Shown here: positions 18,412-39,208 of the stretch, piece after piece | Numbering within the stretch: the stretch's first letter is position 1 | Layout of the letters: every line of letters starts with the position of its first letter | Assembly (NCBI GenBank): GCA_963695875.1 | Contig: CAVOID010000015.1 | Location: 14,291 to 78,290, forward strand | Reading direction: 5' to 3' | DNA from: an uncultured delta proteobacterium | GTDB lineage: Bacteria > Desulfobacterota > Syntrophia > Syntrophales > UBA2185 | Length of the DNA stretch: 64,000 nucleotides | Made by a program: the position numbers and the translations under genes | The notes under the pieces: model-generated | The model's database searches: none | Seen by the model: the letters and a program-made list of their open reading frames with translations, nothing else | What the model was told of the DNA's origin: nothing

Positions 18412-20352
18412 ATGGCACAGTTTCTCAAATTCATCCAGAAACCCATCATCGTCAAATTGATGGGAGGTCTCCTCGTTTTTCTGCTTATCGTGGGTTTGCG
18501 AAACAGCGGACATCTCGAATTTCTGGAACTCGCAGCGTATGACTGGTTCATACGCATGGAGCCGAAACTCTCCAGCGGAGATCCCAGGATAACGCTCATA
18601 GAGATTTCCGAAAAAGACATTCATGCCCATGGCCGCTGGCCCCTGACGGATGAGGCCCTCGCCAAAGCCATGAATATTCTCGTCAAGGATAATCCCCGTG
18701 CCGTTGGCCTGGACATTTATCGCGATATTCTCGTGCCTCCAGGAAGCGAAGAATTAAACGCCATCTTCGTCGAAAATCCTCAAATCATCGGGGTGATGAC
18801 ATTCGGCGAGAAGGGTGTGCGGCCGCCGGCGATCATCAGCAATACGGAGCAAGTGGGGTTTAACGACATACTTGTCGATCCCGGAGGTATTGTGAGGAGA
18901 GCGCTTATCTTTCTGGATGACGGTGAGAATGTGTATAATTCTTTTGCCCTCCGGCTCGCTTCTCTTTATCTTCATGCGGAAGGAATTGCTCTACAGGCTG
19001 ATCCGGAAAATCCGCAATACATCCGTCTGAAGGATACTACGATAAAACCTTTTGAGGCAAATGACGGGGGCTATATTAAGGCGGATGCTAGAGGTTACCA
19101 GTTTCTTCTGGACTTCGAGAACGCGGGCTTGCCTTTTCGGTCCTATTCTTTCTCCAAGCTGTTATCCGGTGAAGTTCCAGCGGAAGCGATCGCCGATAAA
19201 ATAATCCTAATCGGCGTCAGCGCCCAGAGCGTCAAAGACTTTTTTTATACACCGCTGAGCAAAGGTTTCGAAGAGGTCCAGCAGGTTCCCGGTGTTGTTC
19301 TGCACGGACACATTATAAGCCAACTGCTGAGGTTCGCCCTCGACGGAACTTCACCGCTAAAGACATTGCCGGAAACGCAGAAGCTCATCTGGATCTTGCT
19401 CTGGAGCCTCACAGGAGGTTTGATCGGACTCCGCATACGCTCCGTATGGCGCTTCTCTATGTTGATCTTAGGCGGCTTGGTGCTTCTTTGTCTTGCGTCA
19501 TATTTTGCCTTTCTTGCCCGCTGGTGGATTCCCCTGGTGCCTCCAGCTCTATCATTCTTCATATCCGCTGTTGTCGTCACGGCCTACATGTCAAGCCATG
19601 AAAAGAAAGAGCGGGCCCTCCTGATGCAGCTCTTTTCGAGACATGTGTCAAAAGAAATTGCGGAGATCATCTGGCAGCAGAAGGATCAGTTTCTGAACGA
19701 CGGCCGTCCCCGATCCCAGAAAATGACGGCTACCGTTTTTTTCTCCGATTTAAAGGGTTTTACAACGATGTCCGAAAAGATGGACCCGCAGGAGCTTATC
19801 GACTGGCTGAACGCCTATATGGAACCTATGACGCGCTTGATTATGGAGCACGGCGGGGTCATCGATGACTATGCCGGGGATGGCATCAAGGCGAACTTCG
19901 GTGTGCCGCTGCCGCGGAAAAATGAAGATGAGGTGCGCTCGGACGCCATGAATGCAATTAACTGCGCTCTTGCCATGGAGAAAGAAATGTGCCGCCTCAA
20001 TGCCTTCTGGAGCCAAAAGGGGCTTCCCGCCATGGGGACGCGGGTCGGCATCTTTACCGGGACTGTTGTGGCGGGCCTTCTGGGAAGCTCAAAGCGATTA
20101 AAGTACACCACCGTCGGCGATACCGTTAACATTGCCGCGCGGCTGGAAAGTTATGACAAAGAAGTGTGCAAAGATGCCCTCTGCCGCATCCTCATCGGTG
20201 AGCCGACTTTGCGCCATGTCAACGGCCAGTTTAAGACAGAAAGAATAGGAGAGGTCAGCCTGAAAGGAAAGGATGAAAGAATAATCGTTCACCGGGTGCT
20301 GGGTGATGAATCTCCCGGCTCTCAAGCAATATCAAAGGAGGGAATATCATGA
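18412..20352 (+). CDS. CHASE2 sensor domain / class III adenylate-guanylate cyclase
   Basis: CHASE2 region reads LELAAYDWFIRMEP...ITLIEISEKDIHAHGRWPLTDEALAKAMNILVKDNPRAVGLDIYRD. TM helices follow, then the cyclase core ATVFFSDLKGFTTMSE...GDGIKANFG...YTTVGDTVNIAARLES. Confidence 0.9.
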   Translation: MAQFLKFIQKPIIVKLMGGLLVFLLIVGLRNSGHLEFLELAAYDWFIRMEPKLSSGDPRITLIEISEKDIHAHGRWPLTDEALAKAMNILVKDNPRAVGLDIYRDILVPPGSEELNAIFVENPQIIGVMTFGEKGVRPPAIISNTEQVGFNDILVDPGGIVRRALIFLDDGENVYNSFALRLASLYLHAEGIALQADPENPQYIRLKDTTIKPFEANDGGYIKADARGYQFLLDFENAGLPFRSYSFSKLLSGEVPAEAIADKIILIGVSAQSVKDFFYTPLSKGFEEVQQVPGVVLHGHIISQLLRFALDGTSPLKTLPETQKLIWILLWSLTGGLIGLRIRSVWRFSMLILGGLVLLCLASYFAFLARWWIPLVPPALSFFISAVVVTAYMSSHEKKERALLMQLFSRHVSKEIAEIIWQQKDQFLNDGRPRSQKMTATVFFSDLKGFTTMSEKMDPQELIDWLNAYMEPMTRLIMEHGGVIDDYAGDGIKANFGVPLPRKNEDEVRSDAMNAINCALAMEKEMCRLNAFWSQKGLPAMGTRVGIFTGTVVAGLLGSSKRLKYTTVGDTVNIAARLESYDKEVCKDALCRILIGEPTLRHVNGQFKTERIGEVSLKGKDERIIVHRVLGDESPGSQAISKEGIS

Positions 20353-21102
20353 ATAACCTGAAACTAATAGTAATCGTCGGGCTTATTGCGGCGCTGCCGT
20401 TTCTCACCGGCGCAGCAGATGAGGGTAAGACAAAGCGGTCTGATGAAAATACCCAAACAGATCAAAAAGCGAAGCAGGTTACGACCGTGGGCAAGCCCGT
20501 ATACAAACCGCCTCTCCGCGGATCGCCAGCCGGGCGTGTGGGGGGTGGAACGCGCGGGATGACAGAAAGGGAGTCCTTTTCTCTACAGGTCCTGGCGCCG
20601 GACCACATTGGTTTGACGATCCAGGATCAACCCTGTCTCTACTGGTACGTATCGAAACCAATCCCTTATCCTGTTGAACTGACCGTTATTGAAAGAAATG
20701 CAGTGAAACCACTTCTTGAAAAGATCATCAAGGGTCCTGATAAGGGTGGCATCCAATTCATTCGTTTAGCCGATTATGCTGTGCATCTGCGTCGGAATGT
20801 CCCATACAAATGGTTTGTGACCCTTGTGACCGATTCCAATCACCGTTCCAAAGATATTCTGGCAGGTGGCATAATAACACTGGTTGAACCGCCGCCATCG
20901 CTATTCGGCCAAACTCAAGGCGGCAGACAGCGGCAAAGCGCCCTATATTTACGCCGAGGAGGGGCTATGGTATGATGCGCTGGGAGCGATATCAGGGATG
21001 ATCGATGCTTCACCGAATAATGTGGATCTCCGCAAACAGCGCGCCTCCCTTTTAGAACAGGTAGGTTTAAGTGAAGTTGCAGAATTTGAGAATCGGCAAT
21101 AA
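20349..21102 (+). CDS. DUF928-family exported protein; 1-nt indel near 20900
   Basis: Signal peptide, then YKPPLRGSPAGRVGGGTRG. The C-terminal motif EEGLWYDALGAISGMI lies in ORF 20884-21102, which continues ORF 20349-20975. The start overlaps the cyclase stop (ATGA). Confidence 0.65.
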
Positions 21103-21281
21103 GTGTTTAAAAAACAAATAGAAACAAAACTGACATAAATTATAGAATAGGCTGATGCTTTGTATATGATGGGCGTGAAGTCTGTGAATGCCAACCCGTC
21201 GACCAGACAACGAAAGTGACCTTTGATATAGATGGACACGTGAAGGAAGTAAGGGAAATCCATAAGGAACAGTAGACTGCC

Positions 21282-22208
21282 ATGAACGAGAACGAGAGCG
21301 GGAAAAAGGGACTTACGGGGAGCAGAGTTTTCGGGCAATTGCCCAAAGAGAAGTGGGATGAGCTCACTAGGGCTATGGAGAACCAGGTGGTAGCACGGCG
21401 TACGATCATCTTCAGGCAGGGGGATCCAGGGGACAAGTTTTACATTATCCATTCAGGGAAAGTGAGGGTGTTCAGGAAGGACGCTGATGGATTGGAGACG
21501 GACTTGTCTTTGCTGGGAGCGGGTGAAAGCTTTGGTGAGATGGCCCTGCTGACAGGTGAGACGAGATCAGCGAACGTGGAGGCGGTAGAAGAGACCCGCC
21601 TAAAGGTGCTTTCCAAAGAGCAATTTGAGCTTATTCTGAAGGACTTTCCCCATATTTCCCTGGCCTTTGTGAAGCAGATGTCGGGATGGCTTCTGAGGGA
21701 TGAGAAGACCATTGAGAAGGAAGCGCAACAACTTTACCGGGCACATCACATATCCTGGTTTGATTTTCTGCTGGTGATCGGGGTGAGTGTAATTCTAGCC
21801 CTCGTGTTCAATAAGTCTAACCCGAACGGGATACCCCTGTTTCCGAAGTTTCCTGACAGGAAAGCGATTTCCGAGATCAGCGCTGCTCAGGCGATGGAAG
21901 AGGTGAAGAAGGGCGAAGCGCTCATCGTGGATGCTGGTCCTGAAGCCTTCTATGAAAAGAAACATATCCAGGGGGCGATCAGCATACCGCTCTCTCTTTT
22001 TGATATAGTGTATACGATGGCCTTTGGAGGGAATGAGAAGGGGAAAAAGGTGATTGTGTACGGAGGAACATTCAGCAAGCTCTATGATTGGGAGCTGGCG
22101 GACAAGCTCCTTCTTCGGGGGCATAAGGATGTGAAGGTGTTGGAGGGGGGGATGGCGACCTGGGAAAAAAAGGGCTATCCGGTGGAGGAGGAGAAAGGGA
22201 AGGAATGA
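21282..22208 (+). CDS. Cyclic-nucleotide-binding domain / TM helix / rhodanese-like domain protein (rhodanese lacks the catalytic Cys)
   Basis: cNMP-binding region reads [23 protein letters not shown]...[25 protein letters not shown] helix [20 protein letters not shown]. Rhodanese fold reads [24 protein letters not shown]...[10 protein letters not shown]...[15 protein letters not shown]. Confidence 0.8.
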
Positions 22209-22708
22209 TCCATACATTTCTAAAACAGATTGTGACGAGTCCGTATCTGGCGCTGATTCTGAGGGTGTTCGTGGGCTATATCTTTCTGTACGCTAGCGTG
22301 AGCAAGATACCGCACCCTGCGCAGTTTGCGGAAGCGACGGCAGCCTATCAACTGATCCCGTACTGGTTTCTGAATGTGGGGGCTATACTATTGCCGTGGA
22401 TCGAGTTTGTGAGCGGGCTGTTTCTGATCATCGGGCTGAGGACGAGGGCGGCGGCAACCCTCATCGGTCTGATGTTGATCATGTTCACCGTGATGGTCCT
22501 GACCAACATGTACTGGGGAGCGTCTATTACGTGTGGGTGTTATGATACGGTGGGGGAGCCTATTGGGTGGAAGAAGGTCAGTGAGGACATATTACTGCTC
22601 CTCTTCACGATACAGATTTACTTCTGTGACAGGTTGTTCATCTTCCGCAGGGGGGGCTTAATGCCCAGCATAAAGGGCATGGTCGCTACTCTGACAGGAT
22701 TGCAATAA
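22205..22708 (+). CDS. MauE/DoxX-family membrane protein
   Basis: Four predicted TM helices and the motif [12 protein letters not shown]. The start overlaps the upstream stop by 4 nt. Confidence 0.7.
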
Positions 22709-22716
22709 GGTGGCCT

Positions 22717-23082
22717 ATGATGCACACATCAAGATTTCAGGATTATGGATTGATGGTTGGTCTTTGCGTGCTTCTGATGCTTCTGCTCTCATGTGAGTCC
22801 AAGGATAAATACGCGGGAGTATACAAAGCGGTGGGGAATGAGTCGGTGAAGCAGGGGGAGACCGTCTTGGAATTGAAGGGGAATGGGGATGGTCTGTGGA
22901 GAGTGGCCTCTGATGAGGTAGCGGGAACCTTCGTAGAGGTCCCCTTTGTGTGGTACATCAAGCAGGGGGAGTTGCGGGTGAACACCAGAGCAGGGGGAGT
23001 GATTGTGGGGAAGATAGGGAAGGACACCATTCAGATGACCCTCCCAGGCTCCAAAGTGATGACCTTCAAGAAGATCCAATAA
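22717..23082 (+). CDS. Small lipoprotein, unknown function
   Basis: Lipobox LLLSC after a hydrophobic signal. 121 aa, 8 nt after the MauE stop. Confidence 0.5.
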   Translation: MMHTSRFQDYGLMVGLCVLLMLLLSCESKDKYAGVYKAVGNESVKQGETVLELKGNGDGLWRVASDEVAGTFVEVPFVWYIKQGELRVNTRAGGVIVGKIGKDTIQMTLPGSKVMTFKKIQ

Positions 23083-23108: not shown

Positions 23109-23537
23109 CTATCTATTCCCATTGGGTTCGACTGGATACTTCGCTACCTCCCAGGCCCTCCATCCGCCCTTCAATGCGTATATCTTCTTGTATCCTTTCT
23201 CCATGAACTGCAGTGCCGCACGGGCACTGGTCGCTTCATCGTGTCACTTACAATAAAAAACTAATGTTTTCTCTTTTGGATACTTGTTGATCCAGGAGGT
23301 AAGATAGCGGACGTCCTCGTGAACAGCCCCCTTGATCTTGTTCTTGCTGTTCTCCCAGTCGTGGACCGTCCTCACATCGATAACGATGACATCGGGATTC
23401 ACAAGCTGCGCTTTCAGCCCATCAATAGACATCTTCTGCACACTCTCGGGGGTGAGCTCCGTCGCGGCGAAACTAACCGTTCCCGCGAAACCCACCGCAA
23501 GCACCATCAAGGCCAGAAAGAATACTGTTTTTCTCAT
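23109..23537 (-). CDS. Exported single-domain rhodanese, candidate selenoprotein (UGA at 23244-23246 read as Sec, motif CKU)
   Basis: ORF 23244-23537 ends ...TLVFYCK at TGA. The same frame continues HDEATSARAALQFMEKGYKKIYALKGGWRAWEVAKYPVEPNGNR to TAG 23109-23111, giving a complete rhodanese. The TGA sits at the catalytic-Cys position and a hairpin follows 14 nt downstream. Confidence 0.75.
23211..23229 (-). promoter_or_regulatory. Putative bacterial SECIS hairpin (mRNA CAGUGCC-CGUGC-GGCACUG)
   Basis: 7-bp stem with a 5-nt loop, starting 14 nt 3' of the in-frame UGA. Nearly identical in the paralog at 25931-25945. Confidence 0.55.
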
Positions 23538-23565: not shown

Positions 23566-23760
23566 TTAAGGGTTACTTCTTAAGTCTCTTCTCATATTTT
23601 TTGGAAGGTCATTTATGGCTACTGTAAGTAAATCGGCTGGGTTCTTGTCATGCTCAACGGCAACAAATCTTAGTTTCTTTATAAACGTGCTAATCAAGAC
23701 GAAATGATACCACTTTTCAGATAGTCTTGAGCGTGTATTAATCACCCCGCATCGCTTCAA
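23566..23760 (-). CDS. Hypothetical small protein between the two UGA-containing genes (TTG start)
   Basis: 64-aa ORF filling the gap 23763 to 23537. No recognisable motif. Confidence 0.2.
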   Translation of the reverse strand: MKRCGVINTRSRLSEKWYHFVLISTFIKKLRFVAVEHDKNPADLLTVAINDLPKNMRRDLRSNP

Positions 23761-23762
23761 GA

Positions 23763-24074
23763 TTACTGGATGATCTGCGGTTTCCCTTCGATCGGGAATT
23801 CTTGCTTGGCCAGACCCTCTACAATCTTCTCGATACTGGTTTTTGCATCGTCGAATTTTACCGTGACTTCGTGAGTTAATTGGTTCGCATCATATTGCAG
23901 CACGCCCGGGATTTCCTTCAGGGTAGCACGTACCCATTTAGCCGAGTCCGGTCACTCACATCCGGGAACTACCATTTTGACAATTCTTTCGGCAGCAAAA
24001 ATGGGTTGTGATGCGACGAGCAGGAACATCACACTCAAAAGACAGACGATCAGGGAATGTTTACTCCGCTTCAT
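23763..24074 (-). CDS. Exported HMA (heavy-metal-associated)-like protein, candidate selenoprotein (UGA at 23952-23954, motif GCEU)
   Basis: Not in the ORF track because it is split by TGA. Translation: MKRSKHSLIVCLLSVMFLLVASQPIFAA-ERIVKMVVPGCE-U-PDSAKWVRATLKEIPGVLQYDANQLTHEVTVKFDDAKTSIEKIVEGLAKQEFPIEGKPQIIQ*. SD GAGGGG. U aligns with the first Cys of the HMA GMxCxxC loop. Hairpin 16 nt downstream. Confidence 0.65.
23921..23935 (-). promoter_or_regulatory. Putative SECIS hairpin (mRNA GGGUA-CGUGC-UACCC)
   Basis: 5-bp stem with the same CGUGC loop as the rhodanese hairpins, 16 nt 3' of the UGA. Confidence 0.45.
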
Positions 24075-24693
24075 GGGTATTCCCCTCAATATTTTTGGGT
24101 TAGATTATACGGATGCCTCTTTCTAAGAGATGGGTCTTCTATACATAGTTTACATTTTTTATTTCTCAAACAAATTGGTTAAATCGGATAGAAGGGTTAA
24201 GTGGATAAGATATAAATGAACGAATATAATTTTATACTTATGTGAATTTATATAGTGATTCTTCTTCTATGTCAAGCTAATTTTGTCACTAAATATGTCC
24301 GGTATAGCTGTCGATTTCCACGAGTATGCTTGTGAGAGTTTTTCGATGATCGCTGGTAGATATCAGAAGGTCAAGCATTTGTATGAATTTCTCCCCGGTC
24401 TCATGATCTCTAAAAACATAGGGAGAATTCCGTTCTCTAAACTATATGTGCCAACAGAGTAGAAGATTACCGTTAAAAACATTCACTTTCACTGCCCACG
24501 TTATGGTACCTCATAAAAAATAAATCATGCCCCTTCTCTCTTTCAAAAATTACTCTCCGGTGGATGGAAGGATGCTCATATTGGGCAAAAGTCATATCTG
24601 GCAAAGATCAGGACGCATATTTTTTACAGCGAGCAAGGCTCCTCCATGCAGCCGGAAAAAGAAAATGATCAAAGAACCAGATGACCAAATAAC

Positions 24694-25835: not shown

Positions 25836-26267
25836 TTATTTAGGTTCGATTGGATACCCCGCATCCGTCCAGGCATGAAAACCACGCTTGAGGGCGCTTA
25901 CCTTTTTAAAGCCATTGTCCAATAATATCTGTGCCGCACGGGCACTTGTCGCTTCATCGTGTCAGGTACAGTATGTAATGATCTCTTTGTCCCTCGGCAG
26001 TTCGTTGCTTCTGACCTCCAGTTGAACTATGGGAATCCTGATGGCCCCTCTTATCCTGATCTTGCTATCGGCATATTCTCGTCCCGCTCGGACATCAACA
26101 ATCACTATGTCCTCACCTTTATCCATCTTAGCCTTCAGTTCCTGCACTGTGATTCTTGGAACTACATCGTCTGCAGATAAAACAACCGATACGATCAGCT
26201 GATTCAGTACACCGAAGAGCAGAGAAAGAAAGAGACCCTTTAAAAACCATCTCATCGCCATCCTCAT
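25836..26267 (-). CDS. Exported single-domain rhodanese paralog, candidate selenoprotein (UGA at 25962-25964, motif CTU)
   Basis: ORF 25962-26267 ends ...EIITYCT at TGA. The frame continues HDEATSARAAQILLDNGFKKVSALKRGFHAWTDAGYPIEPK to TAA 25836-25838. The 31 nt after the UGA differ from the 23.2-kb paralog at one position. Confidence 0.75.
25931..25945 (-). promoter_or_regulatory. Putative SECIS hairpin (mRNA GUGCC-CGUGC-GGCAC)
   Basis: Stem-loop 16 nt 3' of the in-frame UGA. The sequence is conserved with 23211-23229. Confidence 0.5.
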
Positions 26268-26399: not shown

Positions 26400-26885
26400 T
26401 TATTCCTTTTTTACTGAACGGGGGAAACAGCATTCCCAACTTGGCATACCATCTTCCTCGTTGCGAAGTTTCATGGTGAAATCACCCTTGCTTATTTCCG
26501 TGGCAATGATCGCATTACCATACTTCTTACCCCTTACTTCAACCTTGTCGCCGGCCATAAATTTGATCTTCTGATTTTCAATGAACCACTTGGGTCCCAT
26601 ATAGACGACATACTTGTTATTCTGATCCGTAATGAATCTCATCTGCAGACCGTCTTTCACACCTTTCATCGGCTCAACTCTCGTTACTTTACCGGGCTCC
26701 ACCACTATTGCTTCCATTCCCGTAAATGATGTCTCGGCATCAAGTCCGGGAACTCCCAAAGTCCATGCACCCCTTGATACAGGGCCCGAGGACTGAGATG
26801 CCTGAGCAAACAGCTCTGGTGCGAAAGTCATGCTCACCAAGAACATCATTGCAACTACAACCGTCCAACGTGCTACCTTTCTCAT
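26400..26885 (-). CDS. Exported protein of unknown function (upstream of rhodanese paralog 2)
   Basis: SD GGAGG before ATG 26885. Signal peptide MRKVARWTVVVAMMFLVSMTFAPELFAQA. The C-terminus reads ...PSWECCFPRS. Confidence 0.5.
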   Translation of the reverse strand: MRKVARWTVVVAMMFLVSMTFAPELFAQASQSSGPVSRGAWTLGVPGLDAETSFTGMEAIVVEPGKVTRVEPMKGVKDGLQMRFITDQNNKYVVYMGPKWFIENQKIKFMAGDKVEVRGKKYGNAIIATEISKGDFTMKLRNEEDGMPSWECCFPRSVKKE

Positions 26886-27320
26886 ACTTTCCTCCTTGGT
26901 ATCATTGTTTTGACCCACCCGATTTCGAGCTTAACGATTTAAAAAATGAACCTTCCATACCTCGTGACATCATCTTGTATCCCCTATGGGGTGATGATCC
27001 TGTCCAACACTCTGTTCTTTTTTGCGCAATCTGCAGGGATGGCTCCGGTACAAATAATATCTTTTGACTGCTATTAGTGTCAATCTCTAAATGCTGCATC
27101 ATGCAACAGTTTATAATCAGGTATAGACTGATTTGTGGCTTCGAAATTCCTGCAGTAATCGCCCAATGTTGCATACAGGAACGGAAAAGCCCGAAGCGAT
27201 TGAGTTGGCAAAATTGGCTTCGGGCTTCTCTGGAAACGACCGGCCTCAAAGAAGGAGGAGGCATGAAAACAAAATATATTTTAATTATAAGCCTTTAGAA
27301 AGAGTCAGTCAATCCTTTTT

Positions 27321-37181: not shown

Positions 37182-38006
37182 ATGGTTGAAAAAAGACACT
37201 TATCACAACGCAGTTTCTATATCCATGCCGCCCGCCATCGCCTCTTTGCTCAATTCATCGATTCAGATTCTGAGGATCCCAAAAAGAGTCCAACAACCTT
37301 AGTCTTTCTGCATGAAGGACTCGGCAGTATCGCTCAGTGGCGTGATTTCCCTGCTTGCCTGAGCGCGATGACCGGATTACCCACATTGGTATATGAGCGA
37401 TGGGGATACGGAAGCTCTGACACCCTAAATGTCCCAAGAACCATGGGCTACCTTCATGATGAGGCTTTGATAAGCCTCCCCGAGGTGTTGGAGCAGGTAA
37501 ATATCAATGATGCCATTCTGATCGGTCACAGCGACGGCGGCTCTATCGCCCTTATTTTTTCGGCCATTCATGGAGACAAGGTTCGCGGAGTTATCACAGA
37601 AGCGGCACACGTCTTTGTTGAAGATGTAACAATAGCCGGTATACGCCAGGCCTTCGAGCTGTACGGGACAACCGATCTCAAGGATCGTCTGCATAAATTT
37701 CACAAGAATAACACTGATCTGATGTTTCGCTCCTGGGCCGACACGTGGCTTGCCCCATGGTTTCGCAATTGGAATATTGAAGAATACCTTTCACGAATTA
37801 CCTGTCCTCTCCTCGTGATCCAGGGGGAAGACGACGAATACGGAACAAGTGCACAGGTAGAATCGATCATATCGCAGGCAGGAGGTCCGGCGGAGGGCGT
37901 CATCGTATCAAACTGCGGGCATGTTCCGCATCACCAAGCCCGTGAGCGTGTGCTCGATAGAATGGCCCGTTTCATCAGTTCTCTTGCTCATTCGAAGCAA
38001 ATCTAA
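37182..38006 (+). CDS. Alpha/beta-fold hydrolase
   Basis: Reads LVFLHEGLGS, nucleophile elbow GHSDGG, and C-terminal GHVPHH. Confidence 0.75.
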   Translation: MVEKRHLSQRSFYIHAARHRLFAQFIDSDSEDPKKSPTTLVFLHEGLGSIAQWRDFPACLSAMTGLPTLVYERWGYGSSDTLNVPRTMGYLHDEALISLPEVLEQVNINDAILIGHSDGGSIALIFSAIHGDKVRGVITEAAHVFVEDVTIAGIRQAFELYGTTDLKDRLHKFHKNNTDLMFRSWADTWLAPWFRNWNIEEYLSRITCPLLVIQGEDDEYGTSAQVESIISQAGGPAEGVIVSNCGHVPHHQARERVLDRMARFISSLAHSKQI

Positions 38007-39208
38007 TCATCTTTCAGAATACGAACCCCTATTCTTGTCTTGTCATAACAGTATGCCTCAAGCCCCGGCACGATCATGCGTACAGTCGGAATGCCTGTGT
38101 CCGGTCTTGTAAGATCTACCGCAATTACCCGAGCCAAGCCCCTTGCCCACAGTTTCGCAATCATAGTTCTGATATCCAGCAGTATGTCCTTACTGAAATC
38201 CACTTCAATATCTCGAAGTCCCTTCCGAGCATACGCATAGAACCTCGGATCATCGTCGCCTTCACGATCACCAAGATAGGCCGTTATGGGTTCGCATATT
38301 CCCTCGATACCGAATTTTTGGATCAACAAAGCCCTGGTGGTCACGATTTCGAGAAGTGAACGGATCATGGCGACGCGGGGATCAAGATGGGCGCCAAAAC
38401 CGTCTATAGGTTTCATTGTTGGATGAACCAAGTCGTGGGAAAAGGCGGCAATGACAGGAACTCCAATGTCCGAAGTTATGTCCTTAGCGACTATCTCAAT
38501 ACCGGCATGCTCGAATTTTTCGAAGATTTTAATTATGAACTGGTTGGCCGGCTCATCCTCGATAAACAGGGCATCGCTGTAACTACGTGTATACCGCACT
38601 ATGCTCCATGCGTCTCGCTCGATAACCTCGGCAAGACCGTGAACGACGGCCTCTTCAATGGTATTCCCCGCAGCAATGCCGTTTGTATGAGTATCCATAA
38701 GAAAGACATCGTCCAGATGGCAAGGATGGTAGACCGCGCAGGCGGGGACCAGGATATCTTCGTTGCGCGCCAAATCGCATCCCCAGACCCAGTGAATATC
38801 CCGATCATGGTTGTAATCGCTGTCGTTGGACAGAATCAGCTCGTGAGGATCAAGAATGTTGAACTTCTGTTTCAATTGGTTATAGCTGCCTTTGACCAGT
38901 TTATTCCTGTACTCGTCCATGAATTCTGACGAATAGCGCTCGATGGATTCCATCGTCAAAGACACCTGGGCCTGAATCTGAGATACTCCCTTGCCCGTAT
39001 GACTCGTTTTCGAATTGTCCGGTCTGATCCGGTGACAGGTAAAAACCGGAATCCCGATCCTGTCGAGATCCGATGCTTCCCTAAAGTCAATCATGCTGAC
39101 CAGGTGTCTAATGCTTTCGACAAAATGAAGTGTGGACTCCGGTGTCCTGGAGCGGTGTGTTTCCAGAATGTATACCTTGGGACATTCTCTTAGAATCATG
39201 CCTGGCAT
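38003..39208 (-). CDS. Stand-alone YcaO-family protein
   Basis: Reads LDRIGIPVFTCHRIRP...HTGKGVSQIQAQVSLTMESIERYSSEF and TNGIAAGNTIEEAVVHGLAEVIERDAWSI. Confidence 0.85.
   Translation of the reverse strand: MPGMILRECPKVYILETHRSRTPESTLHFVESIRHLVSMIDFREASDLDRIGIPVFTCHRIRPDNSKTSHTGKGVSQIQAQVSLTMESIERYSSEFMDEYRNKLVKGSYNQLKQKFNILDPHELILSNDSDYNHDRDIHWVWGCDLARNEDILVPACAVYHPCHLDDVFLMDTHTNGIAAGNTIEEAVVHGLAEVIERDAWSIVRYTRSYSDALFIEDEPANQFIIKIFEKFEHAGIEIVAKDITSDIGVPVIAAFSHDLVHPTMKPIDGFGAHLDPRVAMIRSLLEIVTTRALLIQKFGIEGICEPITAYLGDREGDDDPRFYAYARKGLRDIEVDFSKDILLDIRTMIAKLWARGLARVIAVDLTRPDTGIPTVRMIVPGLEAYCYDKTRIGVRILKDD

Follow-up and report, generated by a model that had tools for sequence, protein, structure and literature searches.

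A probable MerP-like selenoprotein with a C-x-U motif, encoded beside exported rhodanese selenoprotein genes in an uncultured Syntrophales bacterium

A 64,000-nucleotide stretch of DNA from an uncultured delta proteobacterium of the order Syntrophales (contig CAVOID010000015.1, positions 14,291 to 78,290; hereafter the window, whose own numbering is used throughout) carries, in our assessment, one intact gene for an exported, MerP-like, ferredoxin-fold HMA protein in which an in-frame UGA encodes selenocysteine (Sec). We place the probability of this reading at about 0.85. The gene runs on the minus strand from 24074 to 23763, and gene finders miss it because of the in-frame UGA: at this locus a mechanical list of open reading frames (ORFs) holds just two fragments, of 45 and 46 residues. 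The case rests on the conservation of the UGA and its replacement by a Cys codon in orthologues, on a hairpin typical of bacterial Sec insertion that follows the UGA at a fixed distance, and on a metal-binding fold that spans the UGA and places it at a classical ligand site.

The frame opens with an ATG at 24074-24072, passes the TGA at codon 41 (23954-23952) and closes with a TAA at 23765-23763. Read through, it yields 103 residues, MKRSKHSLIVCLLSVMFLLVASQPIFAAERIVKMVVPGCE before the TGA and PDSAKWVRATLKEIPGVLQYDANQLTHEVTVKFDDAKTSIEKIVEGLAKQEFPIEGKPQIIQ after it, and the same frame with the same length recurs in 34 of 34 close homologous loci. A preliminary description of this DNA had proposed an uncalled gene split by a TGA, preceded by a GAGGGG Shine-Dalgarno sequence; all of its sequence statements were correct, and its coordinates and parts are retained here (Table 1), with the addition of the minus strand, which it had left unstated. 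The N-terminus, MKRSKHSLIVCLLSVMFLLVASQPIFA followed by AE, looks like a signal peptide when judged by eye. The corresponding region of a natural Cys-containing orthologue (P0014) is modelled as a single helix (residues 2-21), and the MerP profile aligns through the putative signal peptide, from residue 12 onwards.

Genome and metagenome scans yielded a collection of 46 loci, which includes 34 of the Sec type besides the window and 10 distinct ones of the Cys type; with the window, the Sec-type set comprises 35 copies and 26 distinct full-length sequences. The nearest genomes are metagenome-assembled genomes of Syntrophales. Codon 41 is TGA in all 35 Sec-type copies, never TAA or TAG, and it is TGT, encoding Cys, in all 10 distinct Cys-type loci (L004/L009, L037-L045); Cys also occupies this column in proteins P0076 and P0039. 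The preliminary description had recommended a search for Cys-containing orthologues and was prepared to give up the gene if neither homologues with Cys at this column nor the Sec machinery could be found; such orthologues exist, with TGT precisely at the UGA column. Around this position the Sec forms read VPG-C-E-U-[PQA] and the Cys forms M-[EG]-C-x-C-[PAQS]. Within the 26 distinct Sec-type sequences, the ratio of nonsynonymous to synonymous polymorphism (pN/pS) is practically the same before the UGA (0.19, codons 29-40) and after it (0.20, codons 42-103): coding constraint runs in frame past the UGA.

At the protein level, database searches returned homologues with Trp at the UGA column, three entries ending in ...VPGCE (P0020-P0022) and a clade of Cys-containing proteins of 60% identity. 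Every such Trp that was checked at the DNA level was a TGA called under genetic code 4. Misreading of a Sec-UGA as Trp, under code 4 and on short contigs, was seen in P0001-P0013, P0018, P0019, P0075, P0085, P0093 and P0165. An exhaustive profile search added distant, exported, single-domain relatives with the loops PGCV-W-PG, PTCA-W-PG, PACV-W-DD and PGIT-W-SAS, along with others that have Cys (LGCGCP, PGITCAST); in four of four such relatives with Trp (about 35-45% identity), the codon in question is again TGA.

The UGA is followed, inside the coding sequence, by the hairpin GGGUA-CGUGC-UACCC, which begins 16 nucleotides after it, as the preliminary description had read, and whose five-nucleotide loop begins 21 nucleotides after it. 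The stem has 5 base pairs in the window copy and 7 in most orthologues (equivalent to 23937-23919), where the hairpin is usually CAGGGUA-[CG]GUG[CAU]-U[GA]CCCUG. The loop starts exactly 21 nucleotides after the UGA in all Sec-type sequences, and the Cys-type genes cannot form the hairpin. Synonymous diversity is 0.05 over the hairpin codons 46-52, against 0.29 over the rest of the mature region (Mann-Whitney p=2e-4); these codons are among the lowest seven-codon windows of the gene, and the two windows that are lower still overlap them. A hairpin at this same distance also occurs in the four distant relatives, with stems of other sequence (AGGGUA/UAUCCU, GAGAGUA/UGCUCUC, CAGUAUA/UAUACUG and GACGAUA/UUGUCGUC) and the loops GGUUC, AGUUC, AGGUA and AGGUU. 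Across 15 representative sequences, rhodanese elements included, 95.2% of alignment cells are paired, compared with 28-50% in slid controls, changes on both sides occur at 5 of the 7 pairs (a level reached by 4 of 500 shuffles), and the second loop position is an invariant G.

The published model of bacterial Sec insertion sequence (SECIS) elements used by bSECISearch (PMC13188914) describes a loop of 3-9 nucleotides, a stem of 4-16 base pairs, a distance of 16-37 nucleotides from the UGA, a minimum free energy of at most -7.5 kcal/mol and, within the first two positions of the loop, a G that precedes G or U. The element described here falls within each of these bounds, with its 5-nucleotide loop, upper stem of 5-7 base pairs, G as the second loop nucleotide and U or G as the third, 21-nucleotide spacing and energy of -12.8 kcal/mol. 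Compared with the bacterial consensus, its spacing and loop are unusually uniform, extending over two unrelated gene families in one lineage. Indeed, the same loop, CGUGC, stands 21 nucleotides after the UGA in the HMA gene and in two nearby rhodanese genes, the identity that had led the preliminary description to argue for recognition by the elongation factor SelB; the fit to the published model and the covariation strengthen that argument. On either strand of the window, we searched for open-frame TGA codons that have, 18-26 nucleotides downstream, a hairpin of at least 5 base pairs with an NGUGN loop. The matches were the HMA gene, the two rhodanese genes and one other (39126, at 25 nucleotides), and a reversed-sequence control gave zero matches. 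When the spacing was narrowed to 19-23 nucleotides and the scan applied to 222 kb of related loci, it matched HMA and rhodanese genes only, all at 21 nucleotides. The additional hairpin at 39126 on the plus strand was rejected as chance: it has 5 base pairs, a distance of 25 nucleotides and a GGUGU loop, and lies antisense within a YcaO gene (38003-39208, minus strand).

Taken together, these features suggest that UGA41 would be read as Sec through a hairpin within the coding sequence, with a stem of 5-7 base pairs and a loop of the form N-G-[U/G]-[U/G]-N placed 21 nucleotides downstream, and that SelB carrying Sec-tRNA(Sec) would recognize this hairpin on the translating ribosome. Some observations weigh against this. 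The 5-base-pair hairpin of the window does not exceed shuffled sequence in stability (z = -0.03), and its weight as evidence comes from position and register, conservation and covariation, not from energy. Rfam scans, at the gathering threshold and at E<=10, gave no SECIS or other relevant RNA family, a difference from the consensus bacterial elements. Genes for selA, selB, selD and tRNA-Sec were not found in the window or the fetched loci, although not every ORF of the window was screened. Indirect support comes from the two rhodanese selenoprotein genes of the window, described below, and from the affiliation of the nearest genomes with Syntrophales: Syntrophus aciditrophicus has 19 selenoproteins, including SelD (PMC1794560).

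With U written as C, the read-through product matches the Pfam HMA domain (PF00403) over residues 36-89 at 38.3 bits, above the gathering cutoff of 24.8 (E=1.8e-9). Its best match in NCBIfam is the periplasmic mercury-binding protein MerP, at 41.8 bits, below the curated cutoff of 92.55 of the MerP equivalog model TIGR02052. A profile of the family searched against PDB sequences matches the HMA domains of CopA, MerP and CopZ, with no gap in the loop. In this ungapped register the Sec column corresponds to the first Cys of the GMxCxxC motif (GMTCxxC), Cys39 to its Met and Ser/Thr44 to its second Cys, and the loop between VPG and the G-V turn is as long as in MerP. The loop G-C-E-U-P-D-S thus departs from the two-Cys GMxCxxC pattern, with Sec for the first Cys, Ser or Thr for the second and a further Cys in place of the Met. 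This is the register that the preliminary description had deduced by counting from the G-V turn. It had also asked for profile searches and structure prediction. The structure was modelled on P0014, which is 60% identical and stands in for the window protein. The AlphaFold model has a mean predicted local distance difference test (pLDDT) score of 87.6, with values above 94 over the mature domain, and the topology b1(29-36)-loop(LMECAC)-a1-b2-b3-a2-b4. Its top Foldseek match is MerP (1osd, TM-score 0.87), followed by CopA, HMA7 and CopZ. The complete beta-alpha-beta-beta-alpha-beta pattern proposed earlier is therefore borne out by both the Pfam score and this confident model. By alignment, the predicted Sec sits at the N-terminus of helix 1, the canonical site of the first Cys, in a C-x-U-x-x-S/T arrangement.

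The HMA gene has close neighbours that share its decoding. Both flanking rhodanese genes score above the cutoff of NF041203, "rhodanese-related (seleno)protein", and carry their Sec in the C-x-U loop: their read-through products contain FYCK-U-HDEATSARAA and TYCT-U-HDEATSARAA, with the hairpin loop 21 nucleotides after the UGA. Both show the C-x-U spacing that the preliminary description had noticed as common to the HMA protein and the rhodaneses, and a 2026 review lists NF041203 as rhodanese form 3 with the motif CxU. A standard gene caller would cut the two rhodaneses at 97 and 101 residues. The order HMA then rhodanese is kept in L005, L010-L012, L014-L016, L018 and L020. In the window's own clade (at least 80% identity), the HMA gene and a Sec-rhodanese gene follow one another on the same strand, convergent with genes for a lipoprotein, a MauE/DoxX membrane protein and a cyclic-nucleotide (cNMP)-binding rhodanese protein. 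The spacer of about 225 nucleotides between the HMA and rhodanese genes contains orf64 (23566-23760, 64 residues), which we do not regard as a gene, given that conservation is lower there than in the genes on either side and that the spacer shrinks to about 30 nucleotides in L011 and L016. The spacer, orf64 included, is probably a non-coding inserted sequence.

Other lineages have a different exported selenoprotein beside the HMA protein. In a second Sec clade (66-83% identity), the HMA gene is followed immediately by one for an exported peroxiredoxin (PF00578, E=7.5e-24) with a TGA at the peroxidatic position (FFPAAFTPV-U-TGEM) and without any other Cys in its mature part. This gene lies at 2965-3519 of L007 and is also present in L001, L006, L008, L025, L027, L028, L030, L032 and L035; its downstream hairpin is longer and differs from the NGUGN, 21-nucleotide pattern. 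In the distant relatives L051 and L052, the upstream gene encodes an exported thioredoxin-like protein with a U-x-x-C motif (FSNST-U-AVC, extended FSNST-U-AVCQ), found at 195-773 of L051 and 511-1086 of L052 and called as one protein of 191-206 residues only via code 4. The Cys-type genes follow a sigma-54 two-component pair (histidine kinase and response regulator), and three Cys-type loci (L038, L040 and L044) face convergent arsR-arsD-arsA genes, a Cys-rich protein of ArsD size and a zinc-ribbon protein.

Two further features of the neighbourhood can be recorded. An apparent operon on the plus strand (18412-23082), converging on the selenoprotein genes, encodes a CHASE2 adenylate/guanylate cyclase, a DUF928 protein, the cNMP-binding and rhodanese protein, the MauE/DoxX protein and the lipoprotein, an arrangement suggestive of a membrane rhodanese/DoxX module that is under the control of cyclic nucleotides. 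An exported protein of 172 residues (26400-26918, minus strand), ending in ...MPSWECCFPRSVKKE, has no match in Pfam or NCBIfam; it recurs beside the HMA and rhodanese genes in L001, L005, L014, L018, L020 and L023, and the precomputed Pfam annotation at JGI labels its L001 homologue MamS_MamX.

Table 1. Features of the HMA gene and its neighbours (positions in the window)
Feature	Position	Strand	Evidence
Predicted selenoprotein coding sequence, complete; 103 codons including UGA41, plus TAA	23763..24074	minus	Translation; Pfam HMA; homologous loci
Shine-Dalgarno-like GAGGGG, 7 nucleotides 5' of the ATG	24082..24087	minus	Read directly from the sequence
Putative signal peptide, about residues 1-27 (KRSKH n-region, hydrophobic core, IFA/AE)	23994..24074	minus	Judged by eye
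Mature HMA (ferredoxin-like) domain, residues 29-103	23766..23990	minus	Pfam; PDB-sequence profile search; model; Foldseek
Cys39 codon TGT, aligned with the Met of GMxCxxC, 2 residues before the Sec	23958..23960	minus	Invariant in the family alignment
Probable Sec-UGA, codon 41, at the first Cys position of the HMA metal-binding loop	23952..23954	minus	TGA/TGT column comparison
Candidate bacterial SECIS apical hairpin GGGUA-CGUGC-UACCC; loop 23930-23926	23921..23935	minus	Register; conservation; covariation
Exported rhodanese selenoprotein, downstream, FYCK-U-HDEATS; UGA 23246-23244; hairpin 23229-23211, loop CGUGC	23109..23537	minus	NF041203, 160.9 bits (cutoff 115)
Second exported rhodanese selenoprotein, TYCT-U-HDEATS; UGA 25964-25962; hairpin 25945-25931, loop CGUGC	25836..26267	minus	NF041203, 123.7 bits (cutoff 115)
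Conserved convergent neighbours: cNMP-binding/rhodanese protein 21282-22208; MauE/DoxX membrane protein 22205-22708; 121-residue lipoprotein 22717-23082	21282..23082	plus	Pfam; synteny in L005, L011, L012, L014, L018

For the function of the protein, we tentatively favour, at slightly below even odds, the sequestration or transfer of soft metal or metalloid ions, a proposal drawn from its fold and site. The protein would leave the cytoplasm by means of its putative signal peptide, and the exported, low-pKa selenolate, assisted by Cys39, would then serve as a very soft nucleophile in the ligand site familiar from HMA proteins, where Hg, Cu(I), As(III) or a similar species could be bound in the periplasm and passed on as a thiolate-selenolate chelate, perhaps to protect or maintain the exported selenoenzymes encoded alongside. 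The identity of fold and site with MerP and CopZ is consistent with such a role, as are the arsR-arsD-arsA genes that adjoin the Cys-type orthologues in three loci; other HMA-type selenoproteins, the UxxU family NF041115 and the UxxC cation ATPases, are regarded as metal binders (2026 review). Several features pull the other way. The second ligand Cys of the canonical motif is lost, and some relatives retain a single chalcogen residue (GIT-U-SAS, GITCAST). Not one Sec-type locus has a metal transporter, MerT/MerA or an efflux pump next to the gene, and neither MerT, MerA nor MerR, the operon context of MerP, was found among the neighbours examined. An oxidoreductase upstream in L008 and L035, a candidate MerA, scores below all cutoffs, with dihydrolipoyl dehydrogenase as its closest match. 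The conserved same-strand neighbours are redox selenoenzymes, and the ars genes beside the Cys forms lie on the opposite strand.

These same features make a second function for the same selenoprotein a real, if lesser, possibility: the HMA fold may have been recruited, in the periplasm, as a carrier of redox equivalents or chalcogen, working either through a selenenylsulfide cycle between Sec41 and Cys39 or by carrying sulfane sulfur or selenium. Such a carrier would recycle or feed the adjacent exported selenoenzymes, namely the C-x-U rhodanese, the Sec-peroxiredoxin without a resolving Cys and the UxxC thioredoxin-like protein. An exported redox selenoprotein adjoins the gene on the same strand across lineages, in three folds (rhodanese NF041203, peroxiredoxin and thioredoxin-like), the MauE/DoxX membrane protein is a conserved neighbour, and the absence of a nearby metal transporter and the loss of the second Cys, down to one chalcogen residue in some relatives, fit this role as well. 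Moreover, what stays constant in the motif is U/C-x-x-S/T at the N-terminus of a helix, and many selenoproteins are listed with redox motifs of this pattern (PMC1976440). On the other hand, selenoprotein genes might cluster simply because selenium supply regulates them together, and the neighbours examined included no recognized electron source of the DsbD/CcdA type. Nor do we know of any HMA-fold protein with demonstrated oxidoreductase activity. Less likely than not, in our view, is the wider picture in which the HMA fold has been converted to a periplasmic selenol shuttle for redox equivalents or chalcogen and would form, with the exported selenoenzymes and the MauE/DoxX protein, a hitherto undescribed redox module of syntrophic anaerobes, extracytoplasmic and based entirely on selenium.

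The two remaining alternatives concern the decoding itself, and both are highly improbable. Were the UGA a real stop, the locus would be a pseudogene or encode a 40-residue peptide, with or without a separate product of 46 residues from a GTG at 23903. Standard gene callers do split the gene, and the three database entries ending in ...VPGCE stop at this point, but the column is TGA in all 26 distinct Sec-type sequences and the four distant relatives and never another stop codon, purifying selection is equal on its two sides, the HMA fold spans it and the Cys orthologues run through it uninterrupted. Decoding as Trp or Gly, by a reassigned code (table 4 or 25) or near-cognate read-through, would agree with the W of public gene calls, but homologues place Cys (TGT) and not TGG at the codon, the SECIS-type hairpin accompanies the UGA and is lost where Cys is used, the related genomes belong to Syntrophales, an order with a documented Sec trait, and TGA is the ordinary stop of 13 of the 35 long ORFs in the window, including a purA that matches its model end to end; a genome-wide reassignment of TGA is therefore ruled out.

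We thus return to the exported HMA selenoprotein, which we consider a well-supported and apparently uncatalogued family. Neither the table of the 2026 review nor the text on BSepDB nor the deep-Sep paper lists a PF00403/HMA family with a CxU motif, and we found no description of a Sec-containing MerP-like HMA protein in the literature consulted, although an earlier listing in Haft & Tolstoy 2025 or BSepDB is possible. Public databases misannotate the family in three ways: entries are truncated at ...VPGCE, started downstream, or given Trp under code 4. Since metagenome gene callers translate Sec-UGA as Trp, a cheap way to flag hidden selenoproteins is to look, among small redox or metal proteins, for a column in which Trp lines up with Cys. 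The lineage's SECIS signature, a five-nucleotide NGKKN loop exactly 21 nucleotides after the UGA, likewise picked out selenoprotein genes in 222 kb with zero false matches. More broadly, a Sec at a ligand position of a classic metallochaperone site, genetically linked to exported selenoenzymes, raises the question of whether, in the periplasm of syntrophic anaerobes, such a protein traps metal(loid)s through an ultra-soft site or acts as a redox partner.

Among known systems, the closest in structure are the single-domain HMA proteins of the MerP/CopZ type (PF00403; PDB 1osd, 1afi and 2qif), which have the same beta-alpha-beta-beta-alpha-beta fold and the same size, carry their reactive residue in the same loop between the first strand and first helix, with an identical length from VPG to G-V, and share an FDD.KT motif; MerP, like the window protein by our prediction, also has an N-terminal signal peptide. 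The window protein differs from them in having C-x-U-x-x-S/T in place of M-x-C-x-x-C, and exported selenoenzymes as neighbours in place of a mer or cop operon. HMA-type selenoproteins are themselves already known: NF041115 and the UxxC cation-transporting ATPases, both from anaerobic, Sec-rich bacteria, also carry Sec in the metal-binding loop of an HMA-type domain, and what appears to be new here is the C-x-U form of the motif. Those families keep both ligand positions, whereas in the window protein, which is exported and has one Sec, the second is Ser/Thr and the Cys has moved to position -2. Its scores fall short of the NF041115 cutoff (21.8 bits against 95, with one Sec and the motif CxUxxS) and of the MerP cutoff, and its motif is different. 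Finally, the adjoining NF041203 rhodanese (rhodanese_LYCAU, form 3, CxU) is also exported and shares both the C-x-U motif and the SECIS loop CGUGC at 21 nucleotides, although its fold is unrelated to HMA and it is already catalogued as a selenoprotein family.

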